Shown: positions 6,153 to 34,824 of the stretch, piece by piece
Layout: each line of letters begins with the position of its first letter
Numbering within the stretch: position 1 is the first letter of the stretch
DNA from: Fimbriimonadales bacterium
GTDB taxonomy: Bacteria > Armatimonadota > Fimbriimonadia > Fimbriimonadales > JABRVX01
Assembly (NCBI GenBank): GCA_045862955.1
Contig: BTVI01000009.1
Location: 34,814 to 98,813, forward strand
Direction of reading: 5' to 3'
DNA length: 64,000 nucleotides
Program-made: the position numbers and the translations under genes
The notes under the pieces: generated by a model
What the model saw: only the letters and a program-made list of their open reading frames with translations
Told to the model about the DNA's origin: nothing
The model's database searches: none

Positions 6153-6191
6153 GCGTTAGCACTTCCGCAGCGATGTATGAAGGATGAGTGA

Positions 6192-7124: not shown

Positions 7125-8444
7125 ATGCGAAGAGTAGCTTCCGCACCTAGCTTCAGTATCGTTCCGCCCGAACGAAAGGCAATCTGGGAGGGCGAGATCC
7201 ACGTCGTCACGCCGATGTTCGGTGGGTCGGCGACGGCCGGCCAAGTGGACCCCGGGCGCCCCGTGAATGCGAAGATGGTTCGCGGCCACCTGCGCTTCTG
7301 GTGGCGGGCCTGCCGGGCGGCTCAATTCGAGAGCGCGAAGGATCTGTTCGACGCCGAAGCCGCACTTTGGGGCTCGACGGAGACGCCGTCGGCCCTAGAC
7401 CTGGTGCTCGAAGTGCGTTCCTCCGGCAACAGCCGAGCCTGTGCGCGTTACGAGAAGAGGCCCGATGGCACTTACAAATCGCTGCCTGCCTTCGCATCAG
7501 GCTATCCGCCGTACGCACTGTTCCCATTTCAAGGCAAGGCAGAAAGGACCACGATACAAATTCAGCCGGCTGAAGCACTCGAGGGTGTTCGATTTAGCCT
7601 CCGAATCCTTCCCTCGCAAAGCATCAGAAGTGACGCTCTCGACGGCGTTGCTGACGGGGTTCTAGCGGCGTTGTGGGCATGGCTGCTGTTCGGCGGCGTG
7701 GGTGCGAGGACCCGCCGGGGTTGTGGCAGCCTGTACACCAACGGCTGGCCCTTCGAAGGTCTGCAAGCCAATGCCCTCGAGGCGATCTCGAAGCTCAAGT
7801 CTGAGTTTCTCCATTCTGGAGCCCGCTCCCTGCCGATACCAGCGCTGTGTGGAGCAGGCTTGCTGGTCGGGACGCAACTGCAAGGCCACCTCGACGCTTG
7901 GAGCGCTGCAGTGAACACGATGCGCGACTTTCGACAGTCCGTTGGCTTCGCGAGAAATCGTGGTCAGCAACACAATCGTCCTGGTCGCAGTCGCTGGCCA
8001 GAGGCGGATAGTATCCGCGAGTATGCTCATGTTGCAGCGCCCGGGCATCGTCCCAGTCATCCGGCACGTCCTTTCTTCCCGCGCGCGGATCTGGGCATGC
8101 CGATCGTGTTTCACTTCCAAAGCCGCGAAGACCCGTCGGACTACATCGTGGGGCCGAAGGAAGATGGCAAGCAGCGCATGGCCTCCCCTATCATCCTCAA
8201 ACCGCTCGCAGTTTCCGTCAAAGCCGCCTACCCGATCGCGCTACTACTAAATGCCCCTCATGTTTGGGACCGAGAGGCCCCGAAGCCTTACGCGAACAAC
8301 AAACCGCTGGGACATAGCGAGCTCGCGGATGGTAGCAAAGTCGCGAAGGTACCGCCTCTGACTGACATGGGTAACAAGAACGCCCGCGATGCGTTCATGG
8401 CCTTCTTCAAGCAAAAGACCAACGCAAAGGAGGTGAAGCTGTGA
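7125..8444 (+). CDS. cmr1: Type III-B RAMP protein Cmr1
   Basis: 'VVTPMFGG', 'VRGHLRFWWRA', 'FGGVGARTRRGCGSL', 'PRADLGMPIVFHF', 'RMASPIILKP'; ATG 7125 follows GGAG. Confidence 0.92.
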   Translation: MRRVASAPSFSIVPPERKAIWEGEIHVVTPMFGGSATAGQVDPGRPVNAKMVRGHLRFWWRACRAAQFESAKDLFDAEAALWGSTETPSALDLVLEVRSSGNSRACARYEKRPDGTYKSLPAFASGYPPYALFPFQGKAERTTIQIQPAEALEGVRFSLRILPSQSIRSDALDGVADGVLAALWAWLLFGGVGARTRRGCGSLYTNGWPFEGLQANALEAISKLKSEFLHSGARSLPIPALCGAGLLVGTQLQGHLDAWSAAVNTMRDFRQSVGFARNRGQQHNRPGRSRWPEADSIREYAHVAAPGHRPSHPARPFFPRADLGMPIVFHFQSREDPSDYIVGPKEDGKQRMASPIILKPLAVSVKAAYPIALLLNAPHVWDREAPKPYANNKPLGHSELADGSKVAKVPPLTDMGNKNARDAFMAFFKQKTNAKEVKL

Positions 8445-10231
8445 GCTACTTGTTCGCGGTATCGCTGGGTCCGGTACAGGGCTTCATCCAAGCGGCTCGA
8501 AAGACGCGGGACCTTTGGTATGGCTCCGAGATGCTGAGCGAGATGTCACGCGAGGTGGCGAAGATGCTGCGTGACCGTGGCGCCGAGCTGATCTTCCCCT
8601 CGCCACAAGCGCTAGAGATGGACCACAGCGGTGCACAGCCAACGGGGAGTCGGCAGCCTGCAATCGCCAACAAGATACTGGTGGAGGTGAGCACGAACCC
8701 CCAGCCACTGGCAGAAGCCGTCGGGCAGGTGGTAAGCGAGTTCCTCGATAAGCAGCGGAATGCCGCAGTGGCGAAGGCGAAGGGTCACCTCGAGGGCGTA
8801 CTGAAAGAAGAGCCAATGGGCTCGCAGGTAGCTGCCTTCCCTGAGGTGTACTGCGCATGGTGGCCGATGAACGGAGACTACGAGTGCGCTCGCTTGGAGG
8901 TGGACCGGCTGCTAGCAGGGCGCAAAGCCCTTCGCGATTTCGCACCGAACAACGGCATCGCAGGTCGCCCTAAGTCTTCCCTAGATGGAGCCCTCGAGTC
9001 GGTCACGTACGATACGTCGAAGTTTGACCCTGTCAGGCTAAGGGCGATCGGCTTGAGGCCGGGCGAGGAGTTGGATGGCGTATCGCTGATCAAGCGTGTG
9101 AATGCAGGCGAACGCTTCGTGTCCGTGTCCAGAGTGGCTGTGGACCCGTTCGTGCGCCATCTGAAAGAGAACAAGCCTGACGTGCTCAACGCACTCTGCG
9201 ACAGCGCGCAGACACTGACGGGTACCGACTGGGTGCAAAGATTCAAGGCGGAAGGACGGCTCAAACACTACGATGCCTTTCCATACGACACCCAACTCTT
9301 CTACGGTCCGCCGACCAAACTGGAAGCGAGCGAGGCCCCGGAGCTTGCACCGCAAGCAGAGAACTTCTACAAGATTGCCTCCGGCGCCGGCTCGCCGCCC
9401 CTGTACTACGCGGTGCTGCAGGGTGACGGCGACCGAATGGGAAAGGTACTCGGAAGCCTCGGGGTCAAGGAGAAGCATCAGGAGTTCTCTTCCAAGCTTG
9501 TGGATTTCGCATCTGCGGCGGCCGACATCGTCGCGAATCACCACGGCGCACTGGTCTACAGCGGTGGCGATGACGTATTGGCCTTCTTGCCCCTCGACCA
9601 AGCGCTCGAGTGCGCGGATGAGCTTCAGAGAGAGTTTCGCCGCGTTCTGAGTGCATTCGAGGGTGCGACATTCACCTGCGGCATAGCAATCTGCCACTAC
9701 TCCGAACACCTACAGAACGCGCTGCGCTGGGCGAGAGATGCCGAAAGAGCCGGCAAGAAAGTTCGTAACGCCATCGGCATCCACCTTCATACACGTACCG
9801 CTGGCGAGGAGAAGGTGGAAGTAGTGGACGAGTGGGGAGAGGACCCGGCAGTCCAGAATGCCGAAGGCGCGAGAAAGCATGGTGCCACCGTCAGCCGTCT
9901 GCTGGAGTGGGTGAACCTCTTGCGCGAAGACCGCATCCCGGACGGTGCCATCTTTCAGTTACGGGCTCTACATCGTGAGTTTCGTGATAGCGGAGTAACC
10001 GAAGTGGAAGTTCTTCAGAAGGAGGCGATGCGCATCATCGGGAGAAAGCGCGCCGAGAAGGGCACTAAGCCGCTAGACGAAGAAGACAAGAAGCGGATCG
10101 AGAACAGTATGTTCTCCCAGCCAATCGGCGATTTGAACGCAGCTCTCGATAGCGTCGACCGCTTCGTCAACGAGATGATCATCGCCCGCCATATCGCAAG
10201 AGCGAAAGACGTGGTGGAGAAAGGAGCGTAG
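8441..10231 (+). CDS. cmr2: Type III-B Cas10/Cmr2, HD domain absent, cyclase motifs intact
   Basis: Starts directly at 'SLGPVQGFIQAARKTRDLWYGS'; 'LQGDGDRMG' and 'YSGGDDVLA'. Confidence 0.95.
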   Translation: MSYLFAVSLGPVQGFIQAARKTRDLWYGSEMLSEMSREVAKMLRDRGAELIFPSPQALEMDHSGAQPTGSRQPAIANKILVEVSTNPQPLAEAVGQVVSEFLDKQRNAAVAKAKGHLEGVLKEEPMGSQVAAFPEVYCAWWPMNGDYECARLEVDRLLAGRKALRDFAPNNGIAGRPKSSLDGALESVTYDTSKFDPVRLRAIGLRPGEELDGVSLIKRVNAGERFVSVSRVAVDPFVRHLKENKPDVLNALCDSAQTLTGTDWVQRFKAEGRLKHYDAFPYDTQLFYGPPTKLEASEAPELAPQAENFYKIASGAGSPPLYYAVLQGDGDRMGKVLGSLGVKEKHQEFSSKLVDFASAAADIVANHHGALVYSGGDDVLAFLPLDQALECADELQREFRRVLSAFEGATFTCGIAICHYSEHLQNALRWARDAERAGKKVRNAIGIHLHTRTAGEEKVEVVDEWGEDPAVQNAEGARKHGATVSRLLEWVNLLREDRIPDGAIFQLRALHREFRDSGVTEVEVLQKEAMRIIGRKRAEKGTKPLDEEDKKRIENSMFSQPIGDLNAALDSVDRFVNEMIIARHIARAKDVVEKGA

Positions 10232-10233
10232 CC

Positions 10234-12813: not shown

Positions 12814-13924
12814 CTTCGTGGCGTCTCGCCGAGGTCTTGCAGCCGTGCAAGATGGTGCTGTCAGAGACAACCCAGGCCTGGCACTCGAGAGATCACTCTC
12901 GTTGCTCGGTGACGACATGGCGGCCCGCGAAAGCGAGCAACGCTTACGGGACAAAATAACAGAACCGATGCCGGCGGAGCTTGCCCTCTTGTACCTCAAG
13001 GCCTATAAGCGCTGGCGGAGCTGCCTAAACTCCTTGCCAGGGCCTGTTCTCACGCGAGAGGTGCGCACCCTGGACCGTGTCATCGTCGGACTCGGCAGTG
13101 AGAGCGTGTTGGAGACCTCCATCACCCTCAACCGTATCTATGGCGTGCCCATCCTCCCCGGCTCAGCACTGAAAGGTGTCGCTAGGTCCTATTATGAGAA
13201 CGAGCTCAGACCTGCCGACCCCGAAGAACGCAAAAAGCACCGGGAGACGGGTGACGACCTCTTCGGCTGGGAGGCCAAGGAGGGTGAGCAGGGCAAAGAA
13301 AAGGAAGAAGCCAAGTCCGGCTGCGTCACCTTCTTCGATGCATGGTACATACCAGGCTCCACCAAAGACGACAAGCCCCTACGACCAGACGTCATCACCG
13401 TGCACCACCCGGCATACTACCAGAACTCCGGACAAGAGCCCCCTACGGACTTCGACGATCCGACTCCCGTCGGCTTCATCAGCGCTCGTGGCTCGTTCCT
13501 TCTCGCAGTGCAGGGCCCGGACGAGCAGTGGACGAACCTCGCCATGGAGGTCCTCACCCGAGCACTCGCGCACTACGGAGTCGGCGGAAAGACCTCCAGC
13601 GGATACGGTCGTCTCGTCCCCAGCACTACCGCGCAGGGTCCAAGCAGCCAGAGCACTACCGACCGTCCCCAGCCAGCACCGGACCCGCTTTCTGACCCGG
13701 AGGTGGAGCAGGTGAAGACCACCCCGCCCAACCAAGTCAGGAGCCGCATCGCTAACTGGCTCCAGAAGTTCAACCAACGTTGCAAAACCGACGTCGGCAA
13801 GGCTCGGGCACTGGCGGAGGCCATAAGAGAGAGAGTGGAGGCGAGTGGCATAGCGGATCAGCTCGGCATGGACCAACGCAACTATCGCATGATGATCGAG
13901 TGGTTGGAGGCTCAGGGGAAGTAA
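12803..13924 (+). CDS. cmr6: Type III-B Cmr6 with C-terminal extension
   Basis: 'RVIVGLGSESVLETSITL..IYGVPILPGSALKG', 'DVITVHHPAYY', 'PTDFDDPTPVGF', 'GVGGKTSSGYG'; AGGAGG RBS before ATG 12803. Confidence 0.93.
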   Translation: MAASFVASRRGLAAVQDGAVRDNPGLALERSLSLLGDDMAARESEQRLRDKITEPMPAELALLYLKAYKRWRSCLNSLPGPVLTREVRTLDRVIVGLGSESVLETSITLNRIYGVPILPGSALKGVARSYYENELRPADPEERKKHRETGDDLFGWEAKEGEQGKEKEEAKSGCVTFFDAWYIPGSTKDDKPLRPDVITVHHPAYYQNSGQEPPTDFDDPTPVGFISARGSFLLAVQGPDEQWTNLAMEVLTRALAHYGVGGKTSSGYGRLVPSTTAQGPSSQSTTDRPQPAPDPLSDPEVEQVKTTPPNQVRSRIANWLQKFNQRCKTDVGKARALAEAIRERVEASGIADQLGMDQRNYRMMIEWLEAQGK

Positions 13925-13934: not shown

Positions 13935-14858
13935 ATGATGTATCCTACTCCCGTAGGCTGTCTGAATCTAGACATACCGGTGCCTGATCCCGCCGACGCA
14001 CTAGATCTCACCACTCTGGATGTTATCATGCAGGTGGGCGAGAAGCCACTGCGTTTCGTCAACTTCCCAGGCCTTGCGTGGCGATCCGTCTTCGGCTATG
14101 CGCTGAGAACGCTTACGTGCTTATCCGCAAACGACTCTGCTTGTGAGCAAGCCTGCGCCCACCCAAAGCTCTGTCTCTACGGTCGCATCTTCAGCCCACC
14201 TCGTATCGAAGAACCGGCTCGAGGATTCCAGGACCCTCCTCGCCCGTACGTGGTGCAGCTTCCCAAGCCAAAGCATGGAATGGGGCAACCTTTCACGCGG
14301 TACGACCTGCGTATCAACCTGATCGGTCCCGCAACGCATGCTGTTGAGGCTGTCGTTGCCGCACTCCGCCTAGCGTGCGAAAGGGGCATCGGGCCGGACC
14401 GAGCTAGGCTAAGCGTAATCCAAGATGTTCGAACGAGCTGGAGCCGGCCGGAATGCGACCTCGATACCGAAAGCATCACCCTAGAGTTCGTGACACCTAC
14501 ACAACTCCGCGTGGGTGGTAGCCTCGTTACTTCGCCAGAGTTCTCCTACATCGTCCGGGGAATCCTTCGAAGGGTTATCCCACTGTCTGAGCTGTACGGC
14601 ACACCGCTGGAAGTCTCGGCCGACCGACTGATCGCGGCTGCTCACGACGTGAAAATCGATCGCGCGAATATCGCTTGGTACGACATCGAGAGAAAGACCC
14701 GAAGGCCAGACAAGAAAATGGTACTAGACGGCTTCGCTGGCACCGTCCGCTACGTCGGCGATATCGGACAATTCCTGCCGTGGTTGTACCTGGGCTCGGC
14801 TCTCAACGTCGGAAAGCATGCTACCTTCGGCATGGGACACTTCGAGGTGCACCCGTGA
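13935..14858 (+). CDS. cas6: crRNA-processing endoribonuclease Cas6
   Basis: C-terminal G-loop 'LNVGKHATFGMGHF', 'LEFVTPTQLR', 'PRPYVV', Cys cluster 'C..C..CLY'. Confidence 0.9.
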   Translation: MMYPTPVGCLNLDIPVPDPADALDLTTLDVIMQVGEKPLRFVNFPGLAWRSVFGYALRTLTCLSANDSACEQACAHPKLCLYGRIFSPPRIEEPARGFQDPPRPYVVQLPKPKHGMGQPFTRYDLRINLIGPATHAVEAVVAALRLACERGIGPDRARLSVIQDVRTSWSRPECDLDTESITLEFVTPTQLRVGGSLVTSPEFSYIVRGILRRVIPLSELYGTPLEVSADRLIAAAHDVKIDRANIAWYDIERKTRRPDKKMVLDGFAGTVRYVGDIGQFLPWLYLGSALNVGKHATFGMGHFEVHP

Positions 14859-16309
14859 GCGACACGGTATTCGCACTCGGTCTCTCTGGATTGCAGGACT
14901 TCGTGTATGACGTAGAAGCGGAGGATGCAGCGCGCAGACTGCGCATACGCTCAGCCATACTAACGCTCGCGCCAGCTCTCGTCGCATCTCGGTTGCGGCA
15001 GCTGACACAGCCAGGACTCGAACCCTACTACCTGGGTGGAGGCCAGTTACTGACGTCATGCTCATCCCAGGCTCTATCCCAGATCGAACCGGAGTTGCGC
15101 AGTCTCCAAGAGTGGCTACTCGTGCATTCCGCTGGGCGCATCCTACTGTACTGGACATCAGTACCTCGCTCGGACGATGTCAAAAATGATCTGCAAGAAA
15201 TCATCCGCGCAGTCCTCCGAGCAAAATGGCAAAGTGGTAGGCATCAATCCGAGTGGTTGGCTCACGCTTCACGGTTGGACCCACTCGACCCGAAGCGAGG
15301 AGCGCTGGGAGATCCGCAGTGGGAAGCAGACATCGGTAGGGAACTAGTGCGGGCCGGCGGCTTCACTGGCTTCCGGCTGGTCAATGGCGGTGACGGGTGG
15401 CCCGTGGGCCCATGGATGGTCCAGCCGGTGTCCGATGGCGAGTCTGACATTCGTATCCAGCAAGGTGCAGACGACCTCGGCATCGTCATCGGCCTCCCGA
15501 CACATGTTCCCACCTACCAGACCGGAGATATCATTCCCTTCGACCAGATGGCAGCCCAGGGAACCGGTGCGAGCTACCTCGCAGCGCTCAAGTTGGACGG
15601 TGACCACATGGGCAAGAGCATGGCAGCAGCTCTGGCCCAAAGCGCCGATGAGTATCTGAGTCGTAGCCGAGCCGTGCGTGCGTTTTTCGCCGTCACGGTG
15701 CCCAGGCTCTTTCGCGACGAGTTTCCCAACGTGTATCTCATCTACTCCGGCGGAGACGACCTAGCAGCCGTCGGCCACTTCCACGATCTGCTCAGAGCCG
15801 CATACCGAATAAACCAAGAGTACTCCCAGCAAGGGCTAGGCACTCTATCGGCCGGGATCACAGCGTTTCACCGTAAGTCTCCAGTACGCTTGGCCATGGA
15901 CGTCGCGAACAATCTGCTCGAAGGGCACGCCAAGAAAGACAGAAATCGAGTGTGCGTCTTCGGCGAGACACTCACCTGGGACCAACTCGATGTTGTCATA
16001 CGAGAGGCAGAGGTGTTGGCCCAGTCCGTCGAGCAGGAACCGGACGGCCTGCCGCGAGGCATGCTACAGCTACTTATGCAGCTAGACTCGCTTTACACGT
16101 CGCAGATTGACTGGCTGAAGAAAGTTCGCTTTCGTGCATTTCCACTGATCCAGTACTTCCGAGCACGCCGCCTAAAAGCAGAGGGACTCTCTACGGAAGC
16201 CGCTACGATATTCTACAACCTGGAGGGTGGACACGACCCCACTTGGAATCGTATCGGACTGGTGGCTCTGCTCGCAGCATGGCTAACTAAGCCACAGGAG
16301 AACGAATAA
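14855..16309 (+). CDS. cas10: Compact Cas10/Csm1 (484 aa; no HD domain; Palm DGD and GGDD intact)
   Basis: GTG start overlaps the cas6 stop; 'LSGLQDFVY..ARRLRIRS', 'YLGGGQ', 'LKLDGDHMG', 'IYSGGDDL', 'TLSAGI'. Confidence 0.88.
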   Translation: MSDTVFALGLSGLQDFVYDVEAEDAARRLRIRSAILTLAPALVASRLRQLTQPGLEPYYLGGGQLLTSCSSQALSQIEPELRSLQEWLLVHSAGRILLYWTSVPRSDDVKNDLQEIIRAVLRAKWQSGRHQSEWLAHASRLDPLDPKRGALGDPQWEADIGRELVRAGGFTGFRLVNGGDGWPVGPWMVQPVSDGESDIRIQQGADDLGIVIGLPTHVPTYQTGDIIPFDQMAAQGTGASYLAALKLDGDHMGKSMAAALAQSADEYLSRSRAVRAFFAVTVPRLFRDEFPNVYLIYSGGDDLAAVGHFHDLLRAAYRINQEYSQQGLGTLSAGITAFHRKSPVRLAMDVANNLLEGHAKKDRNRVCVFGETLTWDQLDVVIREAEVLAQSVEQEPDGLPRGMLQLLMQLDSLYTSQIDWLKKVRFRAFPLIQYFRARRLKAEGLSTEAATIFYNLEGGHDPTWNRIGLVALLAAWLTKPQENE

Positions 16310-20149: not shown

Positions 20150-23100
20150 GTCGCAGCAACCTCCCCGCTAACAAGGGGACTGAAACGTTAATAGTACAAC
20201 CCCATAACTCTAAGGCTTTCTAATTATAACGTCGCAGCAACCTCCCCGCTAACAAGGGGACTGAAACGTCCGATTCGAAGCCATCGGACTGCGCAATCGA
20301 GAGTACGTCGTCGCAGCAACCTCCCCGCTAACAAGGGGACTGAAACAGGCTCGACGGGGAACTTGTCGTCTTGCCAGATGTACGTCGCAGCAACCTCCCC
20401 GCTAACAAGGGGACTGAAACTCCAAACACGACATAGGTCAGACTGATTCCTACCGAATTGATGAAGTCGCAGCAACCTCCCCGCTAACAAGGGGACTGAA
20501 ACGCACCTGACGGTGGGCGGTTACGGCCGATCGCCAGTCCGAGTCGCAGCAACCTCCCCGCTAACAAGGGGACTGAAACGCCAGCAGCTCGGCCCGGAGC
20601 TTCTCTAACATGTGTCTTCTGTCGCAGCAACCTCCCCGCTAACAAGGGGACTGAAACTTCTGATTCTCCTTCAGGATTGTCGTGATGACGTTGTCAAGGG
20701 TTGCGTCGCAGCAACCTCCCCGCTAACAAGGGGACTGAAACGCGGTGTTACAGGAGGACTGGGACGGCCAGGAGTTTTTGGAGTCGCAGCAACCTCCCCG
20801 CTAACAAGGGGACTGAAACGCACACCGCGTCTCCGCCAAAGCCGTGTCCCATGTTGGTTACGTCGCAGCAACCTCCCCGCTAACAAGGGGACTGAAACCG
20901 CGATAATCCTGCAAACCACTTGCAGAACCGATTCGCCAACGTCGCAGCAACCTCCCCGCTAACAAGGGGACTGAAACGAGGGGTGGTTCTTCAAGTCACG
21001 TGACGAGTGGGCTGAAGAGACCGGTATGAGTCGCAGCAACCTCCCCGCTAACAAGGGGACTGAAACAGGGACCGTGCCATCCGTGGTTGCGTACACGGTT
21101 GCGTGTCGCAGCAACCTCCCCGCTAACAAGGGGACTGAAACTTCTGGCGGTCAATCCCGGAAAGGCGGCTAAGGTCAGGGTCGCAGCAACCTCCCCGCTA
21201 ACAAGGGGACTGAAACCGACTGCACGCTGCCGTGGTTCAGGATCCCCAGCAGGTTGGGCGCGGGTCGCAGCAACCTCCCCGCTAACAAGGGGACTGAAAC
21301 CAAGAAGGGGCACGCGCGAGGCTGCGCAAGCTTGGCGTGCTGGTCGCAGCAACCTCCCCGCTAACAAGGGGACTGAAACGCGTGCTACCCAGTAGGACCT
21401 ATCAGCGAGCGGGCCGTTAGGTATCGGGTCGCAGCAACCTCCCCGCTAACAAGGGGACTGAAACAACAACGTTGGAACTGGCTTAGGACGTTGACGTCCT
21501 AGACTTGTCGCAGCAACCTCCCCGCTAACAAGGGGACTGAAACGGCGAAGTAGGCCTCGAAGTAGTGGAGGCATGCCTCCGGGTCGCAGCAACCTCCCCG
21601 CTAACAAGGGGACTGAAACAAAACTTGGAGACGGTATGTTTAGTATCCTAATCAATTCGTCGCAGCAACCTCCCCGCTAACAAGGGGACTGAAACATAAA
21701 GTGTCCGAGTTCCTCCAAAACAGCTAGCGCGGCCTCCTCGTCGCAGCAACCTCCCCGCTAACAAGGGGACTGAAACAACGCATCGTGGATTTTCTTGACA
21801 ACAACCGCAGGCAGAAAGTCGCAGCAACCTCCCCGCTAACAAGGGGACTGAAACTGGAGGAGCTAGGGCGACTTTGGACGGCCCCGCTGGATCGTCGCAG
21901 CAACCTCCCCGCTAACAAGGGGACTGAAACGGGAGCTCGAGGGAGCTCGCGCGGGAGCTCGCGCGGGGGGAGCGTCGCAGCAACCTCCCCGCTAACAAGG
22001 GGACTGAAACGTAGCACGTACCGTCTACGACCTTGCGGCCGCAGCCGGGTCGCAGCAACCTCCCCGCTAACAAGGGGACTGAAACCTCGTTCGCCTTGGC
22101 GAGGGCGCTGTCGGCCTGAGCCTTAAGGGTCGCAGCAACCTCCCCGCTAACAAGGGGACTGAAACAACCTAGCTACTAGCCGCTCGAAGTCGTGGCCCTT
22201 GCGCCTATTGGGTCGCAGCAACCTCCCCGCTAACAAGGGGACTGAAACTCACGGACGCCCCACCTTCCTGCCCCCGGCGGGCCCACCGTCGCAGCAACCT
22301 CCCCGCTAACAAGGGGACTGAAACGTAGCGCGGTCCCACCACAGGGAGTGGGCGAGCCGTCCAACGGTGTCGCAGCAACCTCCCCGCTAACAAGGGGACT
22401 GAAACTATCCGTATGTGATCACGGCGTGCCCGGATGGAGAGGGGTCATGTCGCAGCAACCTCCCCGCTAACAAGGGGACTGAAACGGCTGCTTGAGCTTA
22501 AGCTCAAGCTAGCCGCCCTAGGCGTGAACCCGGGTCGCAGCAACCTCCCCGCTAACAAGGGGACTGAAACGTTCCACAGGTGCTTTGTGACGATTACTGG
22601 CTCAGTTACAGCTGTCGCAGCAACCTCCCCGCTAACAAGGGGACTGAAACCCATCCTTTTGGTGTGCCGCCTCGCCCCCGGCGCAGGCGATGGGGGTCGC
22701 AGCAACCTCCCCGCTAACAAGGGGACTGAAACCTCTTGCTAGGTATGCCATGCCAAACAGTATCGCCGCAGGTCGCAGCAACCTCCCCGCTAACAAGGGG
22801 ACTGAAACTTAGGCCGTTCCGCCAGCGGCGGTAGAGGACCTCCTCGTACATAAAGTGGTCGCAGCAACCTCCCCGCTAACAAGGGGACTGAAACCAACTC
22901 CCGTAGTTCTGCCGGCGCTAATCCCTTCACACTGTCCGTCGCAGCAACCTCCCCGCTAACAAGGGGACTGAAACGGGGCGGCGTGGAGTACCACTCCGCG
23001 TGGAGACTGGTGGACGTGTCGCAGCAACCTCCCCGCTAACAAGGGGACTGAAACGCATGCGCGCGCGATGACACAAGGACGCACGAGAATGCGTCGCAGC

Positions 23101-23286
23101 AACCTCCCCGCTAACAAGGGGACTGAAACAAATCTGCCGAAACCTCTTCTATCGGCGGATATTATGATCTTGGTCGCAGCAACCTCCCCGCTAACAAGGG
23201 GACTGAAACATTGACCGAACGCCTGCCAACACGGCCTATTGTTTGGACCGTCGCAGCAACCTCCCCGCTAACAAGGGGACTAGAAC
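20150..23286 (+). CRISPR. CRISPR array 1: 40 repeats of 37 bp, 39 spacers of 37-52 bp
   Basis: Repeat GTCGCAGCAACCTCCCCGCTAACAAGGGGACTGAAAC counted by eye; last copy (23250) ends ACTAGAAC; orientation from leader position and GAAAC 3' end. Confidence 0.98.
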
Positions 23287-24862: not shown

Positions 24863-25759
24863 ATGATGGTTCCGGTGTGGTTGTTCTACTTAGTGGTAGT
24901 TCAGGCTCTTTTGCCGTCCGATTTAGCTACTCGTCTGGACATTCTTGCTGGGGATGATGGAACCATCGTTGCCGGCATGAATAGCCAGCAGCTCGCTAAG
25001 ATATCCTGGGCTTATAGCTTGGAACAGGTGGCGAAAGAGCAGGGGATGGTGCTGCTAAGAGGGGAAAACGGGATCTCTTGGCTCAAACCGAAAAAGGAAA
25101 AAGAGAGTGAAGAGGATCTGGAGTTTCTGCTCTCTTACCTGCCTTCGAACCTACTCGGAAAGGGTCTTCCCCTTGGAGAGTTTCCACAGGAGGTGCAAAA
25201 TTGGGTGGTGGAGAGGCTTGCCGCCGAAGAAAATCCGATTCTGCAGTCTACGGATATCCTGCTGGAAATAGGCTATGCACCGTACGTAGAGGTACGTAAG
25301 GGGTCTGAGGTAATCGAGCGGGTATTCCTGTTGCCGCATCTTGAAAACAGTGATAACGACACTGGTTTCGGTGCTGGTGGTGGTGGGGGATACCGTTTGT
25401 ACCTAGTTACTCCCTTAGCAGAAGAGGGAAAGGTATACGAGACGCTCGTAGGGCCGGTTGTGTTTTTTGGGAGGCCGCCCAATTTGAATGACGTCTCTAT
25501 GTATGCCGCGTGGTTGTATACACCATTGACGAGGGAGGCCATTCGGAGTGCCGCCCAGAAATTCCAGTCGGCATTCTGGGGAATCTCGGATAGTGTCAAA
25601 TTTACTGCCGCGGATATGTCCCCGGCGCAGAGGGAGGAACTCTTCTCACAAATGGAGTTCGAACCCCTGGAGACGTATACCTACCAGTTCGTACCCAGTT
25701 TTCGTGTTCAAGTAATCTGTCCAGAGCTCCAATCAATAAGGAGCTTCTTTCTACCTTAG
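24863..25759 (+). CDS. Hypothetical protein with hydrophobic N-terminus (possibly exported)
   Basis: 298-aa ORF with AAGGT RBS, acidic composition, lower GC than flanks; family not recognised. Confidence 0.65.
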   Translation: MMVPVWLFYLVVVQALLPSDLATRLDILAGDDGTIVAGMNSQQLAKISWAYSLEQVAKEQGMVLLRGENGISWLKPKKEKESEEDLEFLLSYLPSNLLGKGLPLGEFPQEVQNWVVERLAAEENPILQSTDILLEIGYAPYVEVRKGSEVIERVFLLPHLENSDNDTGFGAGGGGGYRLYLVTPLAEEGKVYETLVGPVVFFGRPPNLNDVSMYAAWLYTPLTREAIRSAAQKFQSAFWGISDSVKFTAADMSPAQREELFSQMEFEPLETYTYQFVPSFRVQVICPELQSIRSFFLP

Positions 25760-26165
25760 TCCTTATAAGGCCGGGCGGGGGTCCACTGTGTGGTGGCCCG
25801 GGCCCGGTAAAGCGCTCATGGTAACGATCCTCATCAAGAGTAATAACGGAGAGGTCGCGGCCTAGCTTTACCATAGGGGAAAGAGGTAGAGAACGAACCT
25901 CTTCGTCGGGGGCTGTCTTAACCCGGTAGTTCCCTGTGTGCGTTTAACACCTCCGGCTACTTGGGTACATGGTAAGTTGGTTTATGAGGCGCCGCCGCAG
26001 GCGGAAGATGGTCTGCAGGCGCTGCAAGACGACAGTGTTCTTCTCGTTCAACGGGATATGCCTCTACTGTAAGGCCGTCATTCCGATGGAGCCCGAACTG
26101 CAAGAAAGTCGCACTGGCCACCCCACTAACAACGCATCTTGACTCGGATCCTAGGAAGGGTTTTT

Positions 26166-26548
26166 CCATGCCTAGACGTTTCGGCTGTCGTCTGCCACCA
26201 CGCTCTCACCCAGCGCCCCCCGAGCAGCCGAACGTCGAGGCACCCAACGTCCGCGGATGGTGATAGCACCCTCACCCCAGCCCTCTCCCTCTAAAGAGGG
26301 AGAGGGAGGGAGACACCACCCCCCAGCTGCCTCGGCGCGGTCCTCGGGTCCGAGGCATGCCTTCCCATGCCTAGACGTTTGGGCTGTCGTCTGCCACCAC
26401 GCTCTCACCCAGCGCCCCCCGAGCAGCCGAACGTCGAGGCACCCAACGTCCGCGGATGGTGATAGCACCCTCACCCCAGCCCTCTCCCTCTGAAGAGGGA
26501 GAGGGAGGGAGATACCACCCCCCAGCTGCCTCGGCGCGGTCCTCGGGT
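26166..26548. repeat. Tandem 184-bp direct repeat (period 199) containing a REP-like palindrome
   Basis: 26166-26349 and 26365-26548 are near-identical; each contains CCCTCACCCCAGCCCTCTCCCTCT..AGAGGGAGAGGG. Confidence 0.9.
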
Positions 26549-26553
26549 TCACT

Positions 26554-27154
26554 TCATACCCTCGGTGCTGCTAGTCGCCGGACGCGGGCCGGGCCATGGA
26601 AAGGTTCCTTGTCGCTGCGGTGCCCTTCCACGAACAGCGCGAACAGCGCCTCCGACATCGCGAGCAGCTCCTTCACCCCCACCGAGTTCTCGAACCGGGA
26701 AAGCGTCGGCTGGCTGGCAATGCCGTCTTTGCCCACAGCGACCTGGAACATCGGGTCGCCCCGAAGCGAGTCGAAGTCGTTGCAGTCCTCGTACCCCATC
26801 GCGATTGCGAAAACACGCTCAGCAGCATAACGTCATGCTGAGCCTGTCGAAGCAGCGGGCAGGGGTGTGCCTCCAACGCTTTCCCCGCCGCCCGCTCGGC
26901 AGGCACGCCCCGAGCCGCTGCGTCCGTCCCAATCGTCTGTCCACCTGCTTCAGAAGTAGCAGCCCGGCGTCCGAAGACACCTTCCCGGCATCGAAAGCGA
27001 GCGCGATCTCACGATTGTCAAAAGGAAGAACGAAGTCGGCGGTCGAAGTGCTCATCTGGGGTGCCTCCTGTCGCAGGTTAGCGGTTTCAACTACCTACTC
27101 GACAAGAAACGGAGTGCACCCCTCTTGAACCTGTCACGAATGATCCGGGCTAGG
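26554..27154 (-). mobile_element. IS1380-family transposase remnant (frameshifted and truncated) with probable left end
   Basis: 'FDAGKVSSDAGLLLL' (26819-27055) and 'GYEDCNDFDSLRGDP..ASQPTLSRFEN' (26554-26799) lie in different frames; CCCGGATCATTC end-like sequence on the minus strand near 27148. Confidence 0.8.
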
Positions 27155-27156
27155 TA

Positions 27157-27193
27157 GTCGCAGCAACCTCCCCGCTAACAAGGTGCCTCAAAC
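27157..27193 (+). CRISPR. Orphan degenerate CRISPR repeat
   Basis: GTCGCAGCAACCTCCCCGCTAACAAGGTGCCTCAAAC, 34/37 identical to the array 1 repeat. Confidence 0.9.
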
Positions 27194-27526: not shown

Positions 27527-28828
27527 ATGGCACGTGTCCTTATCCTAACCGTCGGCGGCAGCTCTCAGCCGATCGTTACCGCGATCCGAGAACTAAAGCC
27601 AGACCGCGTGTTGTTCATTTGCTCCGCAGAAAGCAAGAAGCAGGTGATGGGAGAGGGATCACCCTGCCAGCATCATAAAGGCGATGATGTCCAATCTTGC
27701 CCTAACATCGTCGAGCAGGCTGGCCTGCGAGACCGCTTCGTTGCCGAGAGGGACGTTCTCGTGCTAGAGCACGTCGACTCGCTGGAGTACTGCTACGAGA
27801 CCATCGCGACCACAATCCGCAACCTGATAAACGAGGAGCCATCCTCCGAAGTGCTTGCCGACTTCACGGGTGGCACGAAGACGATGTCGGTGGCACTCGC
27901 CATGGCAGGGTTCGACCTAGGAGTAACACTTTATATCGAAGCCGGCCCGCGCGCAGACCTCCATAGAGTTCGAGGTGGGGAGGCGCCGCTGCTGGTGGGA
28001 ACTGCGGCGCTACGGGCAGAGCGCGTTCTGAATCAATGGGTTCCAGGCTTGCTCGAACAGTATAACTACGCGGGAGCGGTGGCACAGCTGGACCGGTTGC
28101 TGCGGTCCGCCTCTCTCAGCGCCGATCTGCAGTCCATCGTAAGTCGCCATAGGGAAGTATGCAAGGCTTTCGAGGCATGGGACTGTCTGGACTACGAAAT
28201 TGCACTAGGCTTCTTAGAATTACACATGAAAGAACCGGTGCTGAAGGGGTTCGGCATCTTCCTGCGCAAGGTGATATCAGCGCGGCAAGCGATGTGCTCA
28301 CCTGGTTCGATTCGTAGCACTGGCAAGTGCACAGGATATGAGATTGTCGAGGACCTCGTCCGAAACGCGGAGCGGCGCGCAGCAGCCTTGCGGTATGACG
28401 ATGCGGTCGCGCGTCTGTACCGAGCTCTAGAGCTGACGGCGCAGGTGCGCCTTCGCACCGCCCACGACCTCGACACCAGCAACGTGAGTGTAGAGCGACT
28501 ACCGTCGGCGCTTCGGCAGCGCTACGAGAACCGACGCTCCGGGACCGGGCGGGTTCAGGTAGGACTCGTGGACGCCTTCGACCTCTTAGAGGAACTGGAG
28601 GACGAGGCTTCGGCCGAGGCGTGGCGTGAGAGCCGAGAGAAGGTTATGGACGTGCTAAACGTGCGCAACAACAGCTTGATGGCGCACGGGCTGAAGCCCA
28701 TCTCGGAGGAGGAGTACAGGTGCGTCCGCGATAGCCTGATGGAACTGATCGAGCGCGTGATCGGACGTGCGACCAACCGTGACCCGGCGATCACCGCTCC
28801 GCAACTCCCGACGGAACTGGTCATCTGA
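27527..28828 (+). CDS. CARF-HEPN ribonuclease, Csm6/TIGR02710-like
   Basis: CARF motifs 'LTVGGSSQP' and 'ADFTGGTKTMS'; 'RYDDAVARLYRALEL'; HEPN RxxxxxxH 'RNNSLMAH'; AGGAG RBS and upstream TGCTACAAT extended -10. Confidence 0.88.
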   Translation: MARVLILTVGGSSQPIVTAIRELKPDRVLFICSAESKKQVMGEGSPCQHHKGDDVQSCPNIVEQAGLRDRFVAERDVLVLEHVDSLEYCYETIATTIRNLINEEPSSEVLADFTGGTKTMSVALAMAGFDLGVTLYIEAGPRADLHRVRGGEAPLLVGTAALRAERVLNQWVPGLLEQYNYAGAVAQLDRLLRSASLSADLQSIVSRHREVCKAFEAWDCLDYEIALGFLELHMKEPVLKGFGIFLRKVISARQAMCSPGSIRSTGKCTGYEIVEDLVRNAERRAAALRYDDAVARLYRALELTAQVRLRTAHDLDTSNVSVERLPSALRQRYENRRSGTGRVQVGLVDAFDLLEELEDEASAEAWRESREKVMDVLNVRNNSLMAHGLKPISEEEYRCVRDSLMELIERVIGRATNRDPAITAPQLPTELVI

Positions 28829-28926: not shown

Positions 28927-29979
28927 ATGAAAACGTGCATCGTCACAGTGGGCACCTCGCTGCTCACGAACAGGAACAACCCTTGGGCAGACAGGAAGAA
29001 GGATGATCCACTTCCTAATACGGCCGACGCCTCGGCATGGCTGCGTGACCGTGCGGACACGGCCGCGGCATCCGCTGAGACCAACACACTGCGAATGTTA
29101 GGTCTCGAAGTAGGCGATGCCATCGCCTTCCTATACTCGGCCACTCCGGAAGGGCGCTGGTGCGCTGAGGTATTAGAGAAGCACTATAGGGATCGGGGCT
29201 TCGCCACGGAAGCCCACGAAGTCAGCGGCCTGAACTACAAGACCGGTGATGTGACGGACCGAGGTCTGCGCGCTCTCGTGCATCTCATCTTCGACCTGCA
29301 TCGTAGGGCAAACGAGTGCGGCTCCGAGGTCTTCTTCTGTGCCACGGGCGGCTTCAAAGCAGAGACTGCATATATGTATCTGGCTGCGACGCTGCTAGGC
29401 TGCCGTGTGTGTTACATCCATGAGTTTTATAGGGACCTCGTCTGGCTCCCCGCTCTGCCCGCTAAGCTCGACCTTTCGATCGTGCGCGACAACGAGGGCT
29501 TCTTCTCCAAGGCTTCCGATGTCGTGCCTAGTCGAATCATCCAGGGCGAAGGCTGGCTTCAGCGATCTCCCGAGCTTCGCACTCTGGTCGAAGAGGCCGA
29601 CGACATCCTGCAACTCAACGCCGCTGGGATGCTCCTCTGGGAGCTGTATCGCGGCGCAGAGGGAGCGAATGCGGTCTCCGGTGAGCAGGGCAGGAAGGAC
29701 TACCTGTCAGAGACGGAAAAACACAACTGGACCTCGCACAATCACAAGCTGAGACAACTGGACGAGTGCGACTTCGTAGTCCGCTATGAGTATCCTGTTG
29801 AGAGCGTGGCCCACAGTCGCAGAAAGGGTCTGATTAGACAGGACTTCGAGAAGAGAGCGGTTTTCGTGAGGGCTTTTGACGGCAACAAGAGTGTCCCTCT
29901 GAAGGTGATAACCATCCCGATGACACGAGACCTCTTCAGCGCTGCTGCCCGTTACATCGGGGAGATCTTCGAGAAGTAA
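28927..29979 (+). CDS. APE2256-family CARF protein with extra C-terminal domain
   Basis: 'IVTVGTSLL', 'SAETNTL', 'SATPEGRWCA', 'ATGGFKAE', 'YIHE....LVWLP'; about 90-aa C-terminal extension. Confidence 0.82.
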   Translation: MKTCIVTVGTSLLTNRNNPWADRKKDDPLPNTADASAWLRDRADTAAASAETNTLRMLGLEVGDAIAFLYSATPEGRWCAEVLEKHYRDRGFATEAHEVSGLNYKTGDVTDRGLRALVHLIFDLHRRANECGSEVFFCATGGFKAETAYMYLAATLLGCRVCYIHEFYRDLVWLPALPAKLDLSIVRDNEGFFSKASDVVPSRIIQGEGWLQRSPELRTLVEEADDILQLNAAGMLLWELYRGAEGANAVSGEQGRKDYLSETEKHNWTSHNHKLRQLDECDFVVRYEYPVESVAHSRRKGLIRQDFEKRAVFVRAFDGNKSVPLKVITIPMTRDLFSAAARYIGEIFEK

Positions 29980-29984: not shown

Positions 29985-31892
29985 TCAGCGCGCCCGAGGT
30001 AGTAATACGGACCAGTCCGGCTGCCACCACTGAGCCTCTCCGTGACGCACTAGTGCATCGAGCAGCCCGGTGTGGTCTAAGTCACTCTCCGTTGCCAGCA
30101 CGAACAACTGGCATCGTGCGCGGCTGAGCGCCACACACTTGATTCTGGCAGCGCTCAACCCCGAGGTGACGAAACGCTCGGAGTTTACGAGACAGAAGAA
30201 GACGACATCTGCCTCCGCCCCCTGGGCTCTGTGCACGGTTAGGGCCGAGCACTGCTCATCACGGATGTCGGGTGTCAGCAACGCGAGTCGTTGCGCCGTG
30301 TTGCGATAAGGAGATAGCATCAGGCAGCTCAGGTCGGGCTGCCTGGTTCGAAGGATGCGCGCCAACTCGGCAGCAATCGCCGCAGACTTCGGACACTCGT
30401 TTCTCTCCACCCTTGTAGGCATGCGTGCACCCGGAGGGATCGCTGCGACATCAGGGGATATCAGCACCACATGACAGGTGGGCCAGCCCGGCATGGACGG
30501 GAGCTTCCTTGTCAGGCTATCTGGTGTCTTCAGCTCACCCCCGTAGTAAAGATGAGACGTGGCATCGGCGATCGGACGTGCCATCCTTCGCTGGACATTG
30601 AGCAACGTCACGCCTGTCCGCTTCTCGTGCGCGGTCCCTAGCTGTAGCAACTCGGCTGGTTCTCTAAGGTCGAACAAGCTACGACCGAACCAAGGTCGAA
30701 GGTCTCTGCCGCAAACTCTCCTGTTACCAACCGTTACGATGAAGTCCTCTTTCAGGACGGGAGGTAGCTGCATTGGGTCGCCGCACACTACGAGGCGGTC
30801 GTGTGGCATAGATGATAGGGCCGTGGCCTCTGCGATGCATACCATGCTCGCTTCGTCTATACATAGCAGGTCGGGGTTCCATGACCCGATCTCATCCTCA
30901 TTGAGGACCCGCCACGTGTTCGTAACGACGCACTTGGCTTCACCTAGGAGCCTGTTCAGTATCTGCCGTCTCTGGGCCTCGAGAGCGGAAAGCTGCTCTC
31001 TGCACTGATGCAGTCGGCGCTGAACTCCAATGTCCGTCAGCAGCGAGCCCTCCGTCTTGTACTCGAGGTTCTCGATCTCGCGCCGCAGCGCGCTAATCTG
31101 GCGGTCCAGTTCCTCTAGTTCGTCGTTGAAGCGAAGTAAGTGACGACGCTCAGGCGATGTGAGCTCGGGGTTGACGACTGTACCGAGACGCAGAATGTCA
31201 CCGTCTTGACGAGCGACGCTCTCGCGACCGAATCCATCGTCGGCGGCTAACGCTAGGAGATCTGCCGCAGCATTAGCCAGGGTTACGAGCATCACTCTCT
31301 TGCCACGTCGTACCTCGAGCGCAGCTAGTGTGCCCAAAACATGCGTCTTACCGGTACCAGGTGGGCCCCAGATCCAACTCAGCTTGCTCTCTGCCTCGGC
31401 GATAGCTTTCGCCTGACGGCGTGTGAGGGGACTGCCGGCGCTTACTTCGCGCAAAAAACCGGACTGCTGTGCCGATTTACCCAATAGAAGATCGACGATG
31501 GGTTGTGACGGAGCCTCAGCGCCTGCCACTATCGAAGCCAGAGCCGCCACCCGACCTCGGTGAAGGTCCCGTTTTCGAAGGAGCAGGCGCTCGCCACTAA
31601 CTAACTCGTATGGTGCCTCGAAGCGCAGCGTTAGGGTGCGCTCGGAGGGGCGTATGCGACCAATCGAACGGTCGGGGTCCCACGGTACGGATTCTGGAGT
31701 GAACGTGCCGTGTTCGTACTCCTCTTCTTCCGCTCCACCCCAGTCCGCCGTGGCGGGATCATAGTTCACGCGGTAAAAGAGCTTGTCGTCGGTGTCCGCC
31801 GCAGCTACGTAGACCTTCGCGAGTCTGGAGTCGCGTTTCTGCAGTGCGCACGCTCCGAGCAACATCTCGGCGTAGGCACGACGCAACTCCAT
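29985..31892 (-). CDS. SF1 helicase, UPF1/DNA2-like (AAA_11/AAA_12 type)
   Basis: 'WGPPGTGKT', 'IDEASM', 'GDPMQLPPV', 'QRRM', 'SPY', 'TVHRAQGAEAD', 'VALSRAR'; coiled-coil insert in the first RecA domain. Confidence 0.9.
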   Translation of the reverse strand: MELRRAYAEMLLGACALQKRDSRLAKVYVAAADTDDKLFYRVNYDPATADWGGAEEEEYEHGTFTPESVPWDPDRSIGRIRPSERTLTLRFEAPYELVSGERLLLRKRDLHRGRVAALASIVAGAEAPSQPIVDLLLGKSAQQSGFLREVSAGSPLTRRQAKAIAEAESKLSWIWGPPGTGKTHVLGTLAALEVRRGKRVMLVTLANAAADLLALAADDGFGRESVARQDGDILRLGTVVNPELTSPERRHLLRFNDELEELDRQISALRREIENLEYKTEGSLLTDIGVQRRLHQCREQLSALEAQRRQILNRLLGEAKCVVTNTWRVLNEDEIGSWNPDLLCIDEASMVCIAEATALSSMPHDRLVVCGDPMQLPPVLKEDFIVTVGNRRVCGRDLRPWFGRSLFDLREPAELLQLGTAHEKRTGVTLLNVQRRMARPIADATSHLYYGGELKTPDSLTRKLPSMPGWPTCHVVLISPDVAAIPPGARMPTRVERNECPKSAAIAAELARILRTRQPDLSCLMLSPYRNTAQRLALLTPDIRDEQCSALTVHRAQGAEADVVFFCLVNSERFVTSGLSAARIKCVALSRARCQLFVLATESDLDHTGLLDALVRHGEAQWWQPDWSVLLPRAR

Positions 31893-31893
31893 G

Positions 31894-32730
31894 CTACCTC
31901 CTTACGCACTTGCGTGCGATGGCACCGCGTAAGGTGGCACGCCAAGCCTCTATCTCCTGAGGAGAATCGGATGGAATGGGTGGCACCCAAGCGATACTTA
32001 CATGCTCTGCAAGCAGCGCAGCCGCCGTGGCGCTAACATACGATGCCGCCAATACCTCACAGGCCTGGGCCACCTCGTGCCAAGATCGTCCGGCTCTTGC
32101 GAACTCCGAGGCGGCTTCCGAGTAGTGACCGAACTCCAGAAGCACCAGCGCTTGCCGTGCCGCTTCTTTGCCCTCGAAGTGGGACACATTCGGGAGAATG
32201 TGGTACTGCGGGTCTATCCCGAGCCCGGGTGGCAGGAGTTCTGCGCTCTCGACATAGGCCTGGCGAAGTCGCAGTGCCGCAGCTGCAGCCCCCAGAGCCG
32301 CAGCAGTAGCTTTGCGACCGCTTGTAACGTCCACGGTAACTTCTTCGGGATTCCCACCACCCCATCGCAGGTACTCGGACCGCACGACGTCCATCACCAA
32401 ACCACTGTCCATGCCATCGCCGATGCTCAGAGTCCGCAGCACCTCTGGCCTGTGTTTCGACAGCGACAGGGCATCCGGCGCTAGGGATTCGGTCTGGTGT
32501 GTCGTTAGCAGGACGCAGACCCTAGGACTCGTGGCGGCAATTGCCAGAGCAGGTGAGAACGGCTGGGTCCCGACCGCAGTTATGAGGAGGTCGCACCGCG
32601 GACGTTGCCTACACTGCGAGGCGAATCTCTTACGATAATGGGGAAAGACGTGCTGTCGGTAATGCCGAGTCCTCTCCTCCAGATCGGCCGTTTGCTTGAG
32701 CTCTTGGACGGCAACTTCGAGCGACTTCAT
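31894..32730 (-). CDS. Csm6-like CARF protein lacking the HEPN domain
   Basis: 'ITAVGTQP', 'VDVTSGRKATAAAL', 'AYVES', 'ILPN', short helical tail; ends at 278 aa with no HEPN-like RxxxxH segment. Confidence 0.78.
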   Translation of the reverse strand: MKSLEVAVQELKQTADLEERTRHYRQHVFPHYRKRFASQCRQRPRCDLLITAVGTQPFSPALAIAATSPRVCVLLTTHQTESLAPDALSLSKHRPEVLRTLSIGDGMDSGLVMDVVRSEYLRWGGGNPEEVTVDVTSGRKATAAALGAAAAALRLRQAYVESAELLPPGLGIDPQYHILPNVSHFEGKEAARQALVLLEFGHYSEAASEFARAGRSWHEVAQACEVLAASYVSATAAALLAEHVSIAWVPPIPSDSPQEIEAWRATLRGAIARKCVRR

Positions 32731-32977: not shown

Positions 32978-33053
32978 TGGCGCGGCCGGAGGGATTCGAA
33001 CCCCCGACCACCTGATCCGAAGTCAGGTGCTCTATCCACTGAGCTACGGCCGC
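32978..33053 (-). tRNA. tRNA-Arg(TCG)
   Basis: GCGGCCGTAGCTCAGTGGATAGAGCA-CCTGA CTTCGGA TCAGG-..GGTTCGAATCC..GGCCGCGCCA; 76 nt with encoded CCA. Confidence 0.96.
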
Positions 33054-33243: not shown

Positions 33244-33708
33244 TCAGGGCGAGAAGTGGATCTGGCAGTCGCCTTGGACTACCGGGCCAGACAGCGAGTA
33301 CCGTCGTACGCCGAACAGGCTGTAGACGACAAACTCGATGCCGTCATGCGCCTGCCTGCCAGGGTCACTCACATATACCGTCCCGAGAGCGGGAGTACCG
33401 TTCCAGGTGCCAAGCATGTGCACGCCAATCCATCTCTCGCTTGGCGCCGAGATGATTACGCGCCACTCAGCCCCGATGAACACAGAATTTGCAGGGCCGC
33501 CAATGGAGTTAGACTCCTTGAACACGAACTTGCTCAAATATGCGCGGCCATGCGAGAAGTCAGCCGCAATCCAATAGTCCACGTACCCGAACTTGCCACG
33601 CTGCCCCTCGAACCACGCCTTGCCGTAGCTCACAAACGAGGGACCTACTGCAAGTACCGACACCGCCGCAAGAAGTAGGAGTGCCGTGAGGGCGGATCGC
33701 AGTCTCAT
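33244..33708 (-). CDS. Secreted hypothetical protein (paralog of 34098-34568)
   Basis: Signal peptide; shares 'SYGKAWF.GQ.G.FGYVDYW', 'YLSKFVF', 'G.WNGTPA' and 'GDC' with the neighbour. Confidence 0.8.
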   Translation of the reverse strand: MRLRSALTALLLLAAVSVLAVGPSFVSYGKAWFEGQRGKFGYVDYWIAADFSHGRAYLSKFVFKESNSIGGPANSVFIGAEWRVIISAPSERWIGVHMLGTWNGTPALGTVYVSDPGRQAHDGIEFVVYSLFGVRRYSLSGPVVQGDCQIHFSP

Positions 33709-34097: not shown

Positions 34098-34568
34098 TCA
34101 CTGCGAGAGGATGAGCTTGCAGTCCCCCGCAACCGTGATTCCCGCGATGGAGTACATAGGAACGCCATATCCCATCTTCGAGACCGAGAACTCGATACGG
34201 TCCTGTCCCCCGTATGCACCCTCGTGCAGCACGAAATAGCCGTATGCCGGTGTGCCGTTCCAAGCTCCGTACACTAACAGCGCAAACACACGGCGCACGG
34301 GATCCACCAACACAGTAGCCCACCTCGAGGCAACGAACTGGAGATTCGCCGGCGAACCTACGCCATCGGTCTGTCTGAACACGAACTTGCTCAGATACAC
34401 ATGGCCCGCCTGAACATCCCAGCCCAGCCAGTAGTCCACGTACCCGAACCTTCCACCCTGACCGTCGAACCAGGCCTTTCCGTAGCTAGTAACACTACGC
34501 AATTGCGCCGACGCCGGTAGAACGGCTAGCGATAGCAGCAGTGCTACTATCAACACTCGATACCTCAT
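34098..34568 (-). CDS. Secreted hypothetical protein (paralog of 33244-33708)
   Basis: Start 'MRYRVLIVALLL' after AAGGGGG; high similarity to the neighbour. Confidence 0.8.
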   Translation of the reverse strand: MRYRVLIVALLLSLAVLPASAQLRSVTSYGKAWFDGQGGRFGYVDYWLGWDVQAGHVYLSKFVFRQTDGVGSPANLQFVASRWATVLVDPVRRVFALLVYGAWNGTPAYGYFVLHEGAYGGQDRIEFSVSKMGYGVPMYSIAGITVAGDCKLILSQ

Positions 34569-34629
34569 CGTTTCCCCCTTGTTATCCAGTCCTAGATTGT
34601 GTGTCGTCTTGCCACCTGCAAACGCCCGC

Positions 34630-34824
34630 TTAGGTACGGTCAAGGTAGACCCGGAAACCCCCGGTCGTGATAACGCCATTCCAGAAGTGCTGAGGACGTA
34701 GAAACTGCTTGTATATTACGACCTCGACGTAGTCCATGCCGGAGACAATCCCCAACGGCTCTACCGCAAACGCAGGCACGATTGCAAACAGCGTCAGAGC
34801 TGCGGCGATCATCCATGCGCGCAT
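34630..34824 (-). CDS. Small secreted hypothetical protein or gene fragment
   Basis: GAGGT RBS, clear signal peptide 'MRAWMIAAALTLFAIVPAFA'; 64 aa. Confidence 0.45.
   Translation of the reverse strand: MRAWMIAAALTLFAIVPAFAVEPLGIVSGMDYVEVVIYKQFLRPQHFWNGVITTGGFRVYLDRT

Follow-up and report, generated by a model that had tools for sequence, protein, structure and literature searches.

The known effectors of cyclic oligoadenylate (cOA) signalling comprise nucleases, proteases and further enzymes as well as transcription regulators and membrane proteins, and section 8 and Supplementary Table 2 of PMC12669027 list no helicase. Csm6 of Thermus thermophilus (TtCsm6; TTHB152; PDB 5FSH, 8JBB, 8JBC, 8JH1) is an RNase that cyclic tetra-adenylate (cA4) switches on, with a CARF sensor and a HEPN effector domain in one chain. 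Here we analyzed a stretch of 64,000 nucleotides (nt) from a Fimbriimonadales bacterium (assembly GCA_045862955.1, contig BTVI01000009.1), referred to as the window. It contains a HEPN-less Csm6-like CARF protein of 278 amino acids (aa) (32730..31894, minus strand), followed by a UPF1/SMUBP-2/Sen1-like superfamily 1B (SF1B) helicase of 635 aa (31892..29985, minus strand). These two genes form a module that is conserved and co-inherited, of old origin and rare. The pair is likely an undescribed defence module and most likely works as type III ancillary effectors do, with an output of a new kind. An initial annotation had placed the two open reading frames (ORFs) one base apart and a ribosome-binding site of the helicase within the 3' end of the CARF gene. 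Coordinates and site were verified: the Shine-Dalgarno-like AAGGAGGT (31896..31903, minus strand, read from 31903 to 31896) overlaps the CARF stop codon and precedes the helicase ATG by 3 nt, which is a short spacing. The two genes are likely translationally coupled via AAGGAGGT.

The CARF protein consists of N-terminal helices, a CARF core and a helical tail. It had no Pfam match, and PADLOC CARF1 profiles matched its residues 25-210 (E 2e-17). A word-indexed search with the protein returned two close relatives only, of 278 and 283 aa. A five-sequence CARF profile against 1.84 billion representatives yielded 373 matches at E ≤0.001, of which the best 150 were taken further. Against this clade's profile, residues 5-342 of TtCsm6 were the first match (E 3e-24), and the top eight Foldseek matches of an AlphaFold model (mean predicted local distance difference test score 82.5) were all TtCsm6 (E 2e-13). 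The likeness to TtCsm6, put forward in the initial annotation, hence came out on top by family profile and by model. It had also been claimed that the protein stops before any HEPN domain, and indeed the profile match ends at Csm6 residue 342 and the window protein matched neither the Pfam HEPN families nor a custom HEPN profile.

We computed a FastTree phylogeny of the CARF regions from 150 of 152 sequences, with two dropped for short matches. One clade of 66 HEPN-less CARFs (support 0.975) was nested among Csm6 CARF-HEPN RNases. By Pfam and the custom profile, a Csm6 HEPN domain with R415, N416 and H422 was absent in all 66 members, whereas 71 of the 152 sequences carry it; Pfam agreed on its presence or absence in the 89 proteins scanned. 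Another 14 HEPN-less sequences, mostly short, fell outside the clade. An RxH-like string occurred in the last 160 residues of six of the 66 members (unaligned) versus 68 of 70 HEPN-bearing sisters. Judged by sequence, the module protein is hence not a Csm6, as the C-terminal HEPN domain with its R-X4-6-H motif is absent. The loss of HEPN is common to the entire clade and is therefore old; with the domain gone, cOA-activated RNase activity is unlikely.

We mapped the functional residues of TtCsm6 (from PMC10897365) by hand on the profile alignment. G58 is kept in 65 of 66 clade members, T59 in 60, T81 as T/S in 65, T133 as T/S in all 66, and K137 and Y161 in 65 each; the G135 position is matched as well. 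In the window protein the core residues are G54-T55-Q56, T77, D134-x-T136-x-G138-x-K140 and Y159. Like TtCsm6, the clade thus combines N-terminal helices, the CARF core and a helical middle with these pocket positions. Unlike in TtCsm6, S60 is replaced by Q (64/66) and a helicase gene always follows. According to PMC10897365, TtCsm6 requires K137 and T81 for cA4 binding and Y161 for cleavage. Since these cA4-pocket residues are kept across the clade, the CARF pocket has remained under selection long after the loss of HEPN.

The same residues include ring-nuclease motif I (G-T/S), motif II (T-x-G-x-K) and the cleavage-linked tyrosine. The CARF protein might therefore be a stand-alone ring nuclease, as the initial annotation had offered as an alternative, with the helicase co-expressed but not gated by cOA and serving to reset the system, e.g., by releasing Cas10 complexes from target RNA. 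The conserved ring-nuclease residues speak for this alternative, but we consider it unlikely. Like Crn1-type ring nucleases (Sso2081, Sis0455), the clade has a CARF without an effector domain and the motif I and II residues, and it gave weak fold matches to them (E about 1e-3); PMC10897365 also describes the TtCsm6 CARF as resembling Crn1. Moreover, in two clade members, P0041 (722 aa) and P0053 (763 aa), a Csx1-like CARF2-HEPN protein is fused in front of the HEPN-less CARF, and no other ring nuclease was recognised among the 24 window ORFs scanned, a set that does not include all small ORFs. On the other hand, known stand-alone ring nucleases are small, and we know of none that needs a partner gene. 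PMC12409355 used a 250-aa ceiling for them, whereas clade members mostly measure about 275-410 aa, with the window protein among the shortest, and keep a Csm6-type helical tail. They also often lie beside Cami1-like proteins, for which the same source reports that they degrade cA4 themselves. In contrast to Crn1, the clade is thus larger, derived from Csm6 and always coupled to a helicase; by size (mostly 275-410 aa versus under about 250) and by its obligate partner the module protein is, on sequence grounds, not a Crn1.

The helicase matched Pfam AAA_11/AAA_12. With its family profile, the best structures were Sen1 (8FTM), SMUBP-2 (4B3F) and UPF1 (E 5e-46 to 3e-41), and its best PADLOC match was MkoA, in the motor region only (E 7e-35). 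It has a Walker A motif GPPGTGKT, DEAS and motifs III-VI, and all 24 intact helicases in the alignment share Walker A, DE, GDxxQ, QxR, TxHxxQGxEA and VAxxR without variation. As in UPF1-like SF1B helicases, including CnuH of CoCoNuT and MkoA of Mokosh, a helical insertion follows Walker A (about residues 250-315). In the window protein, 174 residues precede Walker A and a 44-residue tail follows motif VI, compared with 170-224 and 30-71 residues in the family. The alignment to SMUBP-2 starts at residue 99, and the region before Walker A is likely the stalk and 1B barrel. No nuclease domain was found in the helicase, nor any conserved catalytic-looking cluster in the family's flanks outside the motor; with flanks of this length there is no room for a nuclease. 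Pfam, motifs and flank lengths hence bear out the earlier claim of a helicase with intact Walker A/B and later motifs but no fused nuclease. In contrast to CnuH and MkoA, the module helicase carries neither a nuclease nor a kinase or any extra domain fused to it, and its upstream partner is a Csm6-type CARF. Unlike in CoCoNuT types II/III, McrB/McrC homologs and a downstream nuclease CnuE with a winged helix-turn-helix domain were not found in a Pfam scan that covered 128 of the 215 ORFs flanking the pair.

Among 401 genomes of the window's phylum we found two clear CARF relatives, in G174 and G241 (31-33% identity), each with the helicase directly behind in a 4-nt overlap. Weak CARF matches in G235 and G152 came without a helicase match, and the G235 protein carries HEPN, as one would expect from the sister group. 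Using only the CARF alignment as query, we retrieved 24 genome and 18 metagenome loci, i.e., 42. The helicase directly follows CARF in 37 of these. In two more (L026, L043) the contig breaks off within the helicase, whose start is visible at a TGATG overlap; L023, L058 and L060 are uninformative, as CARF itself is cut there. The helicase is hence next in 39 of 39 loci in which the CARF stop lies on the contig, i.e., the pair recurs in every informative locus, as was to be checked after the initial annotation. Taking the helicase start nearest to the CARF stop, it lies within -11 to +2 nt of that stop in 32/37 loci, and in 25/37 the two share 1 or 4 nt. Together with the window, L007 and L008, these 45 loci collapsed to 30 clusters at 90% CARF identity, of which 27 contain the helicase. 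Pair-bearing loci came from Armatimonadota, Acidobacteriota, Vulcanimicrobiota/Eremiobacterota, Myxococcales/Bradymonadia, Deltaproteobacteria and Obscuribacterales.

We also searched with the helicase first. In the 401 genomes of the window's phylum, full-length matches occurred only in the three genomes already known to hold the pair, all of which contribute to the alignment behind the profile. A second phylum (201 genomes) gave nine matches, two of them new: in G495 CARF lies directly upstream, and G490 is cut by the contig end. A third phylum (301 genomes) gave three known pairs and six distant proteins with frames of 1071-1406 aa. Overall, these searches added one informative clade member, with CARF upstream. 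The four distant proteins examined (L107:5467-9183, L108:3854-8071, L109:4387-7989, L110:5044-8256), the nearest unpaired helicase relatives, are tandem double helicases, with a UPF1-like followed by a UvrD-like helicase domain, and had no CARF within 8-13 kb.

CARF and helicase trees of 24 pairs shared 14 of 21 splits; all 10 CARF splits with good support recurred in the helicase tree and 11 of 13 helicase splits in the CARF tree, and their distances correlated with r 0.90 (0 of 2000 permutations reached this value). This agreement shows long co-inheritance, not physical contact. The window protein is among the shortest of its clade, which could suggest a recent truncation of csm6 next to an unrelated helicase by chance. 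The 66-member HEPN-less clade, the 39/39 linkage and the matching trees rule this out, and we give it next to no credence. We also looked for a hidden third partner and rejected it, as the Pfam scan of 128 of 215 adjoining ORFs and 25-protein follow-ups revealed no conserved neighbour. Carriage by phage or plasmid was likewise rejected, with no match in viral contigs or plasmids.

The window holds two type III operons, both on the plus strand, i.e., a III-B operon (cmr1-6, 6780-13924) with Cas10/Cmr2 at 8441..10231 and a compact III-A operon (to 18377) with Cas10/Csm1 at 14675..16309. As claimed earlier, both Cas10s have an intact GGDD motif, at residues 375 and 359, respectively. No HD pair was found in the first 120 residues of either. 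Given GGDD without HD in both, the type III system of the window probably depends on cOA effectors. A CRISPR array of 40 repeats of 37 nt (20150..23286, plus strand) as well as cas6, cas1 and cas2 complete the locus. Two effector genes adjoin the pair on the opposite strand: a TIGR02710 CARF-HEPN RNase (27527..28828, plus) and a Cami1-like CARF7 (APE2256) protein with CARF7-DUF2103 as best match (28927..29979, plus). The initial annotation was thus right that the pair abuts two other CARF genes, whereas a shared operon does not hold, since they run convergent to it.

In the wider set, with 128 of 215 flanking ORFs scanned by Pfam, 18 of the 30 clusters had core cas genes or Csx1 in the flank and two more an APE2256-type CARF. 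Recurrence near cas10 loci, the other point to be checked, thus showed as cas or CARF-effector neighbours at 20 of 30 distinct loci. Of 24 host genomes, 19 gave a match to the Cas10 palm domain over the cut-off, compared with 81 of 201 genomes in the window's phylum; in six hosts Cas10 lies on the contig of the pair within about 12 kb. Effectors adjoining the pair were Csx1, Can2/Card1 and Cami1-like proteins.

Ten distinct loci had no cas neighbour. In four of them the contig measures no more than about 5 kb, another four follow JAB or E1-Ubl-E2-JAB genes, and the neighbours of the remaining two (L007, L028) are unrelated. The pair might act as a CRISPR-independent sensor. The four distinct loci behind a JAB or an E1-Ubl-E2-JAB operon with no cas gene nearby would fit, as would G409, G410 and G418, which have neither a Cas10 match over the cut-off nor a cas neighbour; for RtcR-type CARFs, PMC11090510 proposes fragment binding. 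Yet the clade descends from Csm6 and not from RtcR, Cas10 is found in most hosts, and the host genomes are metagenome bins of unreported completeness. We hence regard a CRISPR-independent role as very improbable. As an observation on its own, one sub-branch (L049:5187-7980, L026, L027, L050, L054, L025) carries the pair directly after an operon of E1 (ThiF), ubiquitin-like protein, E2 and JAB, in which the JAB stop meets the CARF start, with no cas gene nearby. In L025 and L054 JAB alone is visible, at the contig start; the window's genome has a distant E1 match only.

Alternatively, the pair could be a cOA-gated helper and no toxin by itself, with the helicase unwinding structured RNA or R-loops, or clearing proteins, for nucleases (Csx1, Can2/Card1, Cami1) or for the Cas10 complex. 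A nuclease effector directly follows the helicase on the same strand in L019 and L022 (both Card1), L034 (Card1-like) and L037 (Csx1), and an APE2256-type CARF does so in L033. Two other effectors lie in the window's locus, and PMC11090510 proposes that the related CoCoNuT helicases work with separate nuclease partners. However, the gene downstream of the pair varies between loci and is often convergent or unrelated, and in L007, L025, L027, L049 and L050 the pair is far from any effector gene. A helper role is therefore, in our view, rather unlikely.

We favour, by a modest lean, that the pair is a self-limiting, cA4-gated RNA translocase or ATPase, i.e., a type III ancillary effector acting in trans. 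With this step from a conserved pair to a cOA-gated effector we infer the ligand, the contact, the direction of control, the substrate and the outcome alike. The ligand would be cA4, since it is bound by the closest relative with a solved structure and the effectors found alongside (Csx1, Can2/Card1, Cami1-like) come from cA4 families. These effectors are listed as cA4 binders in Supplementary Table 2 of PMC12669027, and according to PMC11229360, effectors of one locus usually share their activator. On binding cA4, a CARF dimer would turn on the helicase in trans. The helical tail, which relays the signal to HEPN in Csm6, would dock the helicase and activate or release it. UPF1, SMUBP-2 and Sen1 move 5' to 3' on RNA, and the module helicase may translocate likewise, slowing growth by stripping proteins off transcripts or by burning ATP. 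CARF would slowly cut its own activator cA4 and end the response.

Several findings weigh against this proposal. The matching trees could be explained by linkage and host ancestry alone. In the pocket, TtCsm6 E179 is kept in 57 of 66 clade members, the window protein not being among them, and neither N164 nor the R172/R173 loop is conserved. Two clade CARFs, P0041 and P0053, are fused behind Csx1, a position taken by ring nucleases. Among 8000 candidates of 717-2045 aa, none emerged as a fusion of CARF and helicase, in a weak search that also missed these two known fusions. In 7 of 37 loci, from three lineages (L021; L038, L039; L044-L047), a stop codon or a frameshift breaks the helicase, which may reflect assembly errors, decay or escape from toxicity. 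Five of 24 host genomes have no Cas10 match over the cut-off, a third of the distinct loci (10/30) have no cas neighbour, and the Cas10 background (81/201, from the window's phylum) does not correspond to the hosts' phyla and comes from a profile that also matches GGDEF proteins.

A CARF with a helicase effector was not found in searches of the full-text literature, whose coverage excludes most subscription papers. In PMC6546367, helicases occur with nucleases and not with CARFs, the CARF labels at 32 of 57 places in the supplements of PMC10910872 include no helicase, and a search for the word 'helicase' in PMC11229360 gave no match. A partial parallel is CalpL-CalpT-CalpS, where a sensor likewise relays its signal to the product of another gene (PMC12669027, Supplementary Table 2), although according to the same table with a SAVED-Lon protease and a sigma factor. 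It is an evenly balanced judgement whether type III signalling has in this pair its first effector with a helicase output, in which a Csm6 sensor without RNase would gate a UPF1/Sen1-like RNA motor in trans and thereby shut down gene expression or drain ATP without cutting nucleic acid, in a reversible, cA4-switchable manner. The module would add a new class of cOA output, with the effector domain replaced by a separate protein, and give a bacterial UPF1-like helicase a defined trigger through which its function can be tested directly; provided the gating is true, it would be a small-molecule-switchable RNA motor. Its rarity, mostly in uncultured phyla, may explain its absence from complete-genome surveys.

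Both genes are single-copy in the source genome. A promoter and terminator scan around the pair gave nothing above chance, and four expression runs yielded scattered contigs of depth 2-4 alone, none spanning the CARF-helicase junction. A tRNA-Arg(TCG) (32978..33053, minus) lies just upstream of the pair. Integration of the pair at this site was rejected, as the 3' end of the tRNA has no second copy in the genome. Upstream of the tRNA, 33244-33708 and 34098-34679 (both minus) encode two small proteins that look alike, start in the manner of signal peptides and lack a Pfam match.

Some other loci carry further genes beside the pair. In L040, two large ORFs (5959-8700, 914 aa, with an N-terminal Csx20 match, and 8846-11329, 828 aa, with no family match) adjoin the pair and a cas1. 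TPR and AEP-TOTE primase genes are found beside it in L019, L022, L030 and L041, next to cas1 where the contig reaches. In the sub-branch of L037, L041, L042 and L096, a large helicase gene, which in L037 matches DISARM DrmA, and a DUF1998/MZB gene lie divergent to the pair.

Within the CRISPR locus of the window, a 298-aa ORF (24863-25759, plus) without Pfam, NCBIfam or PADLOC match lies in a stretch of lower GC content (0.52-0.55). Between array and effector genes, a 199-nt unit is present in two tandem copies that are 95% alike (26163-26560). A lone CRISPR repeat (27157-27193, plus; 34 of 37 bases identical) lies 3.9 kb beyond the array, with 334 nt between it and the CARF-HEPN gene that follows; it may be the former end of the array, detached by an insertion, or a regulatory element resembling a CRISPR RNA.

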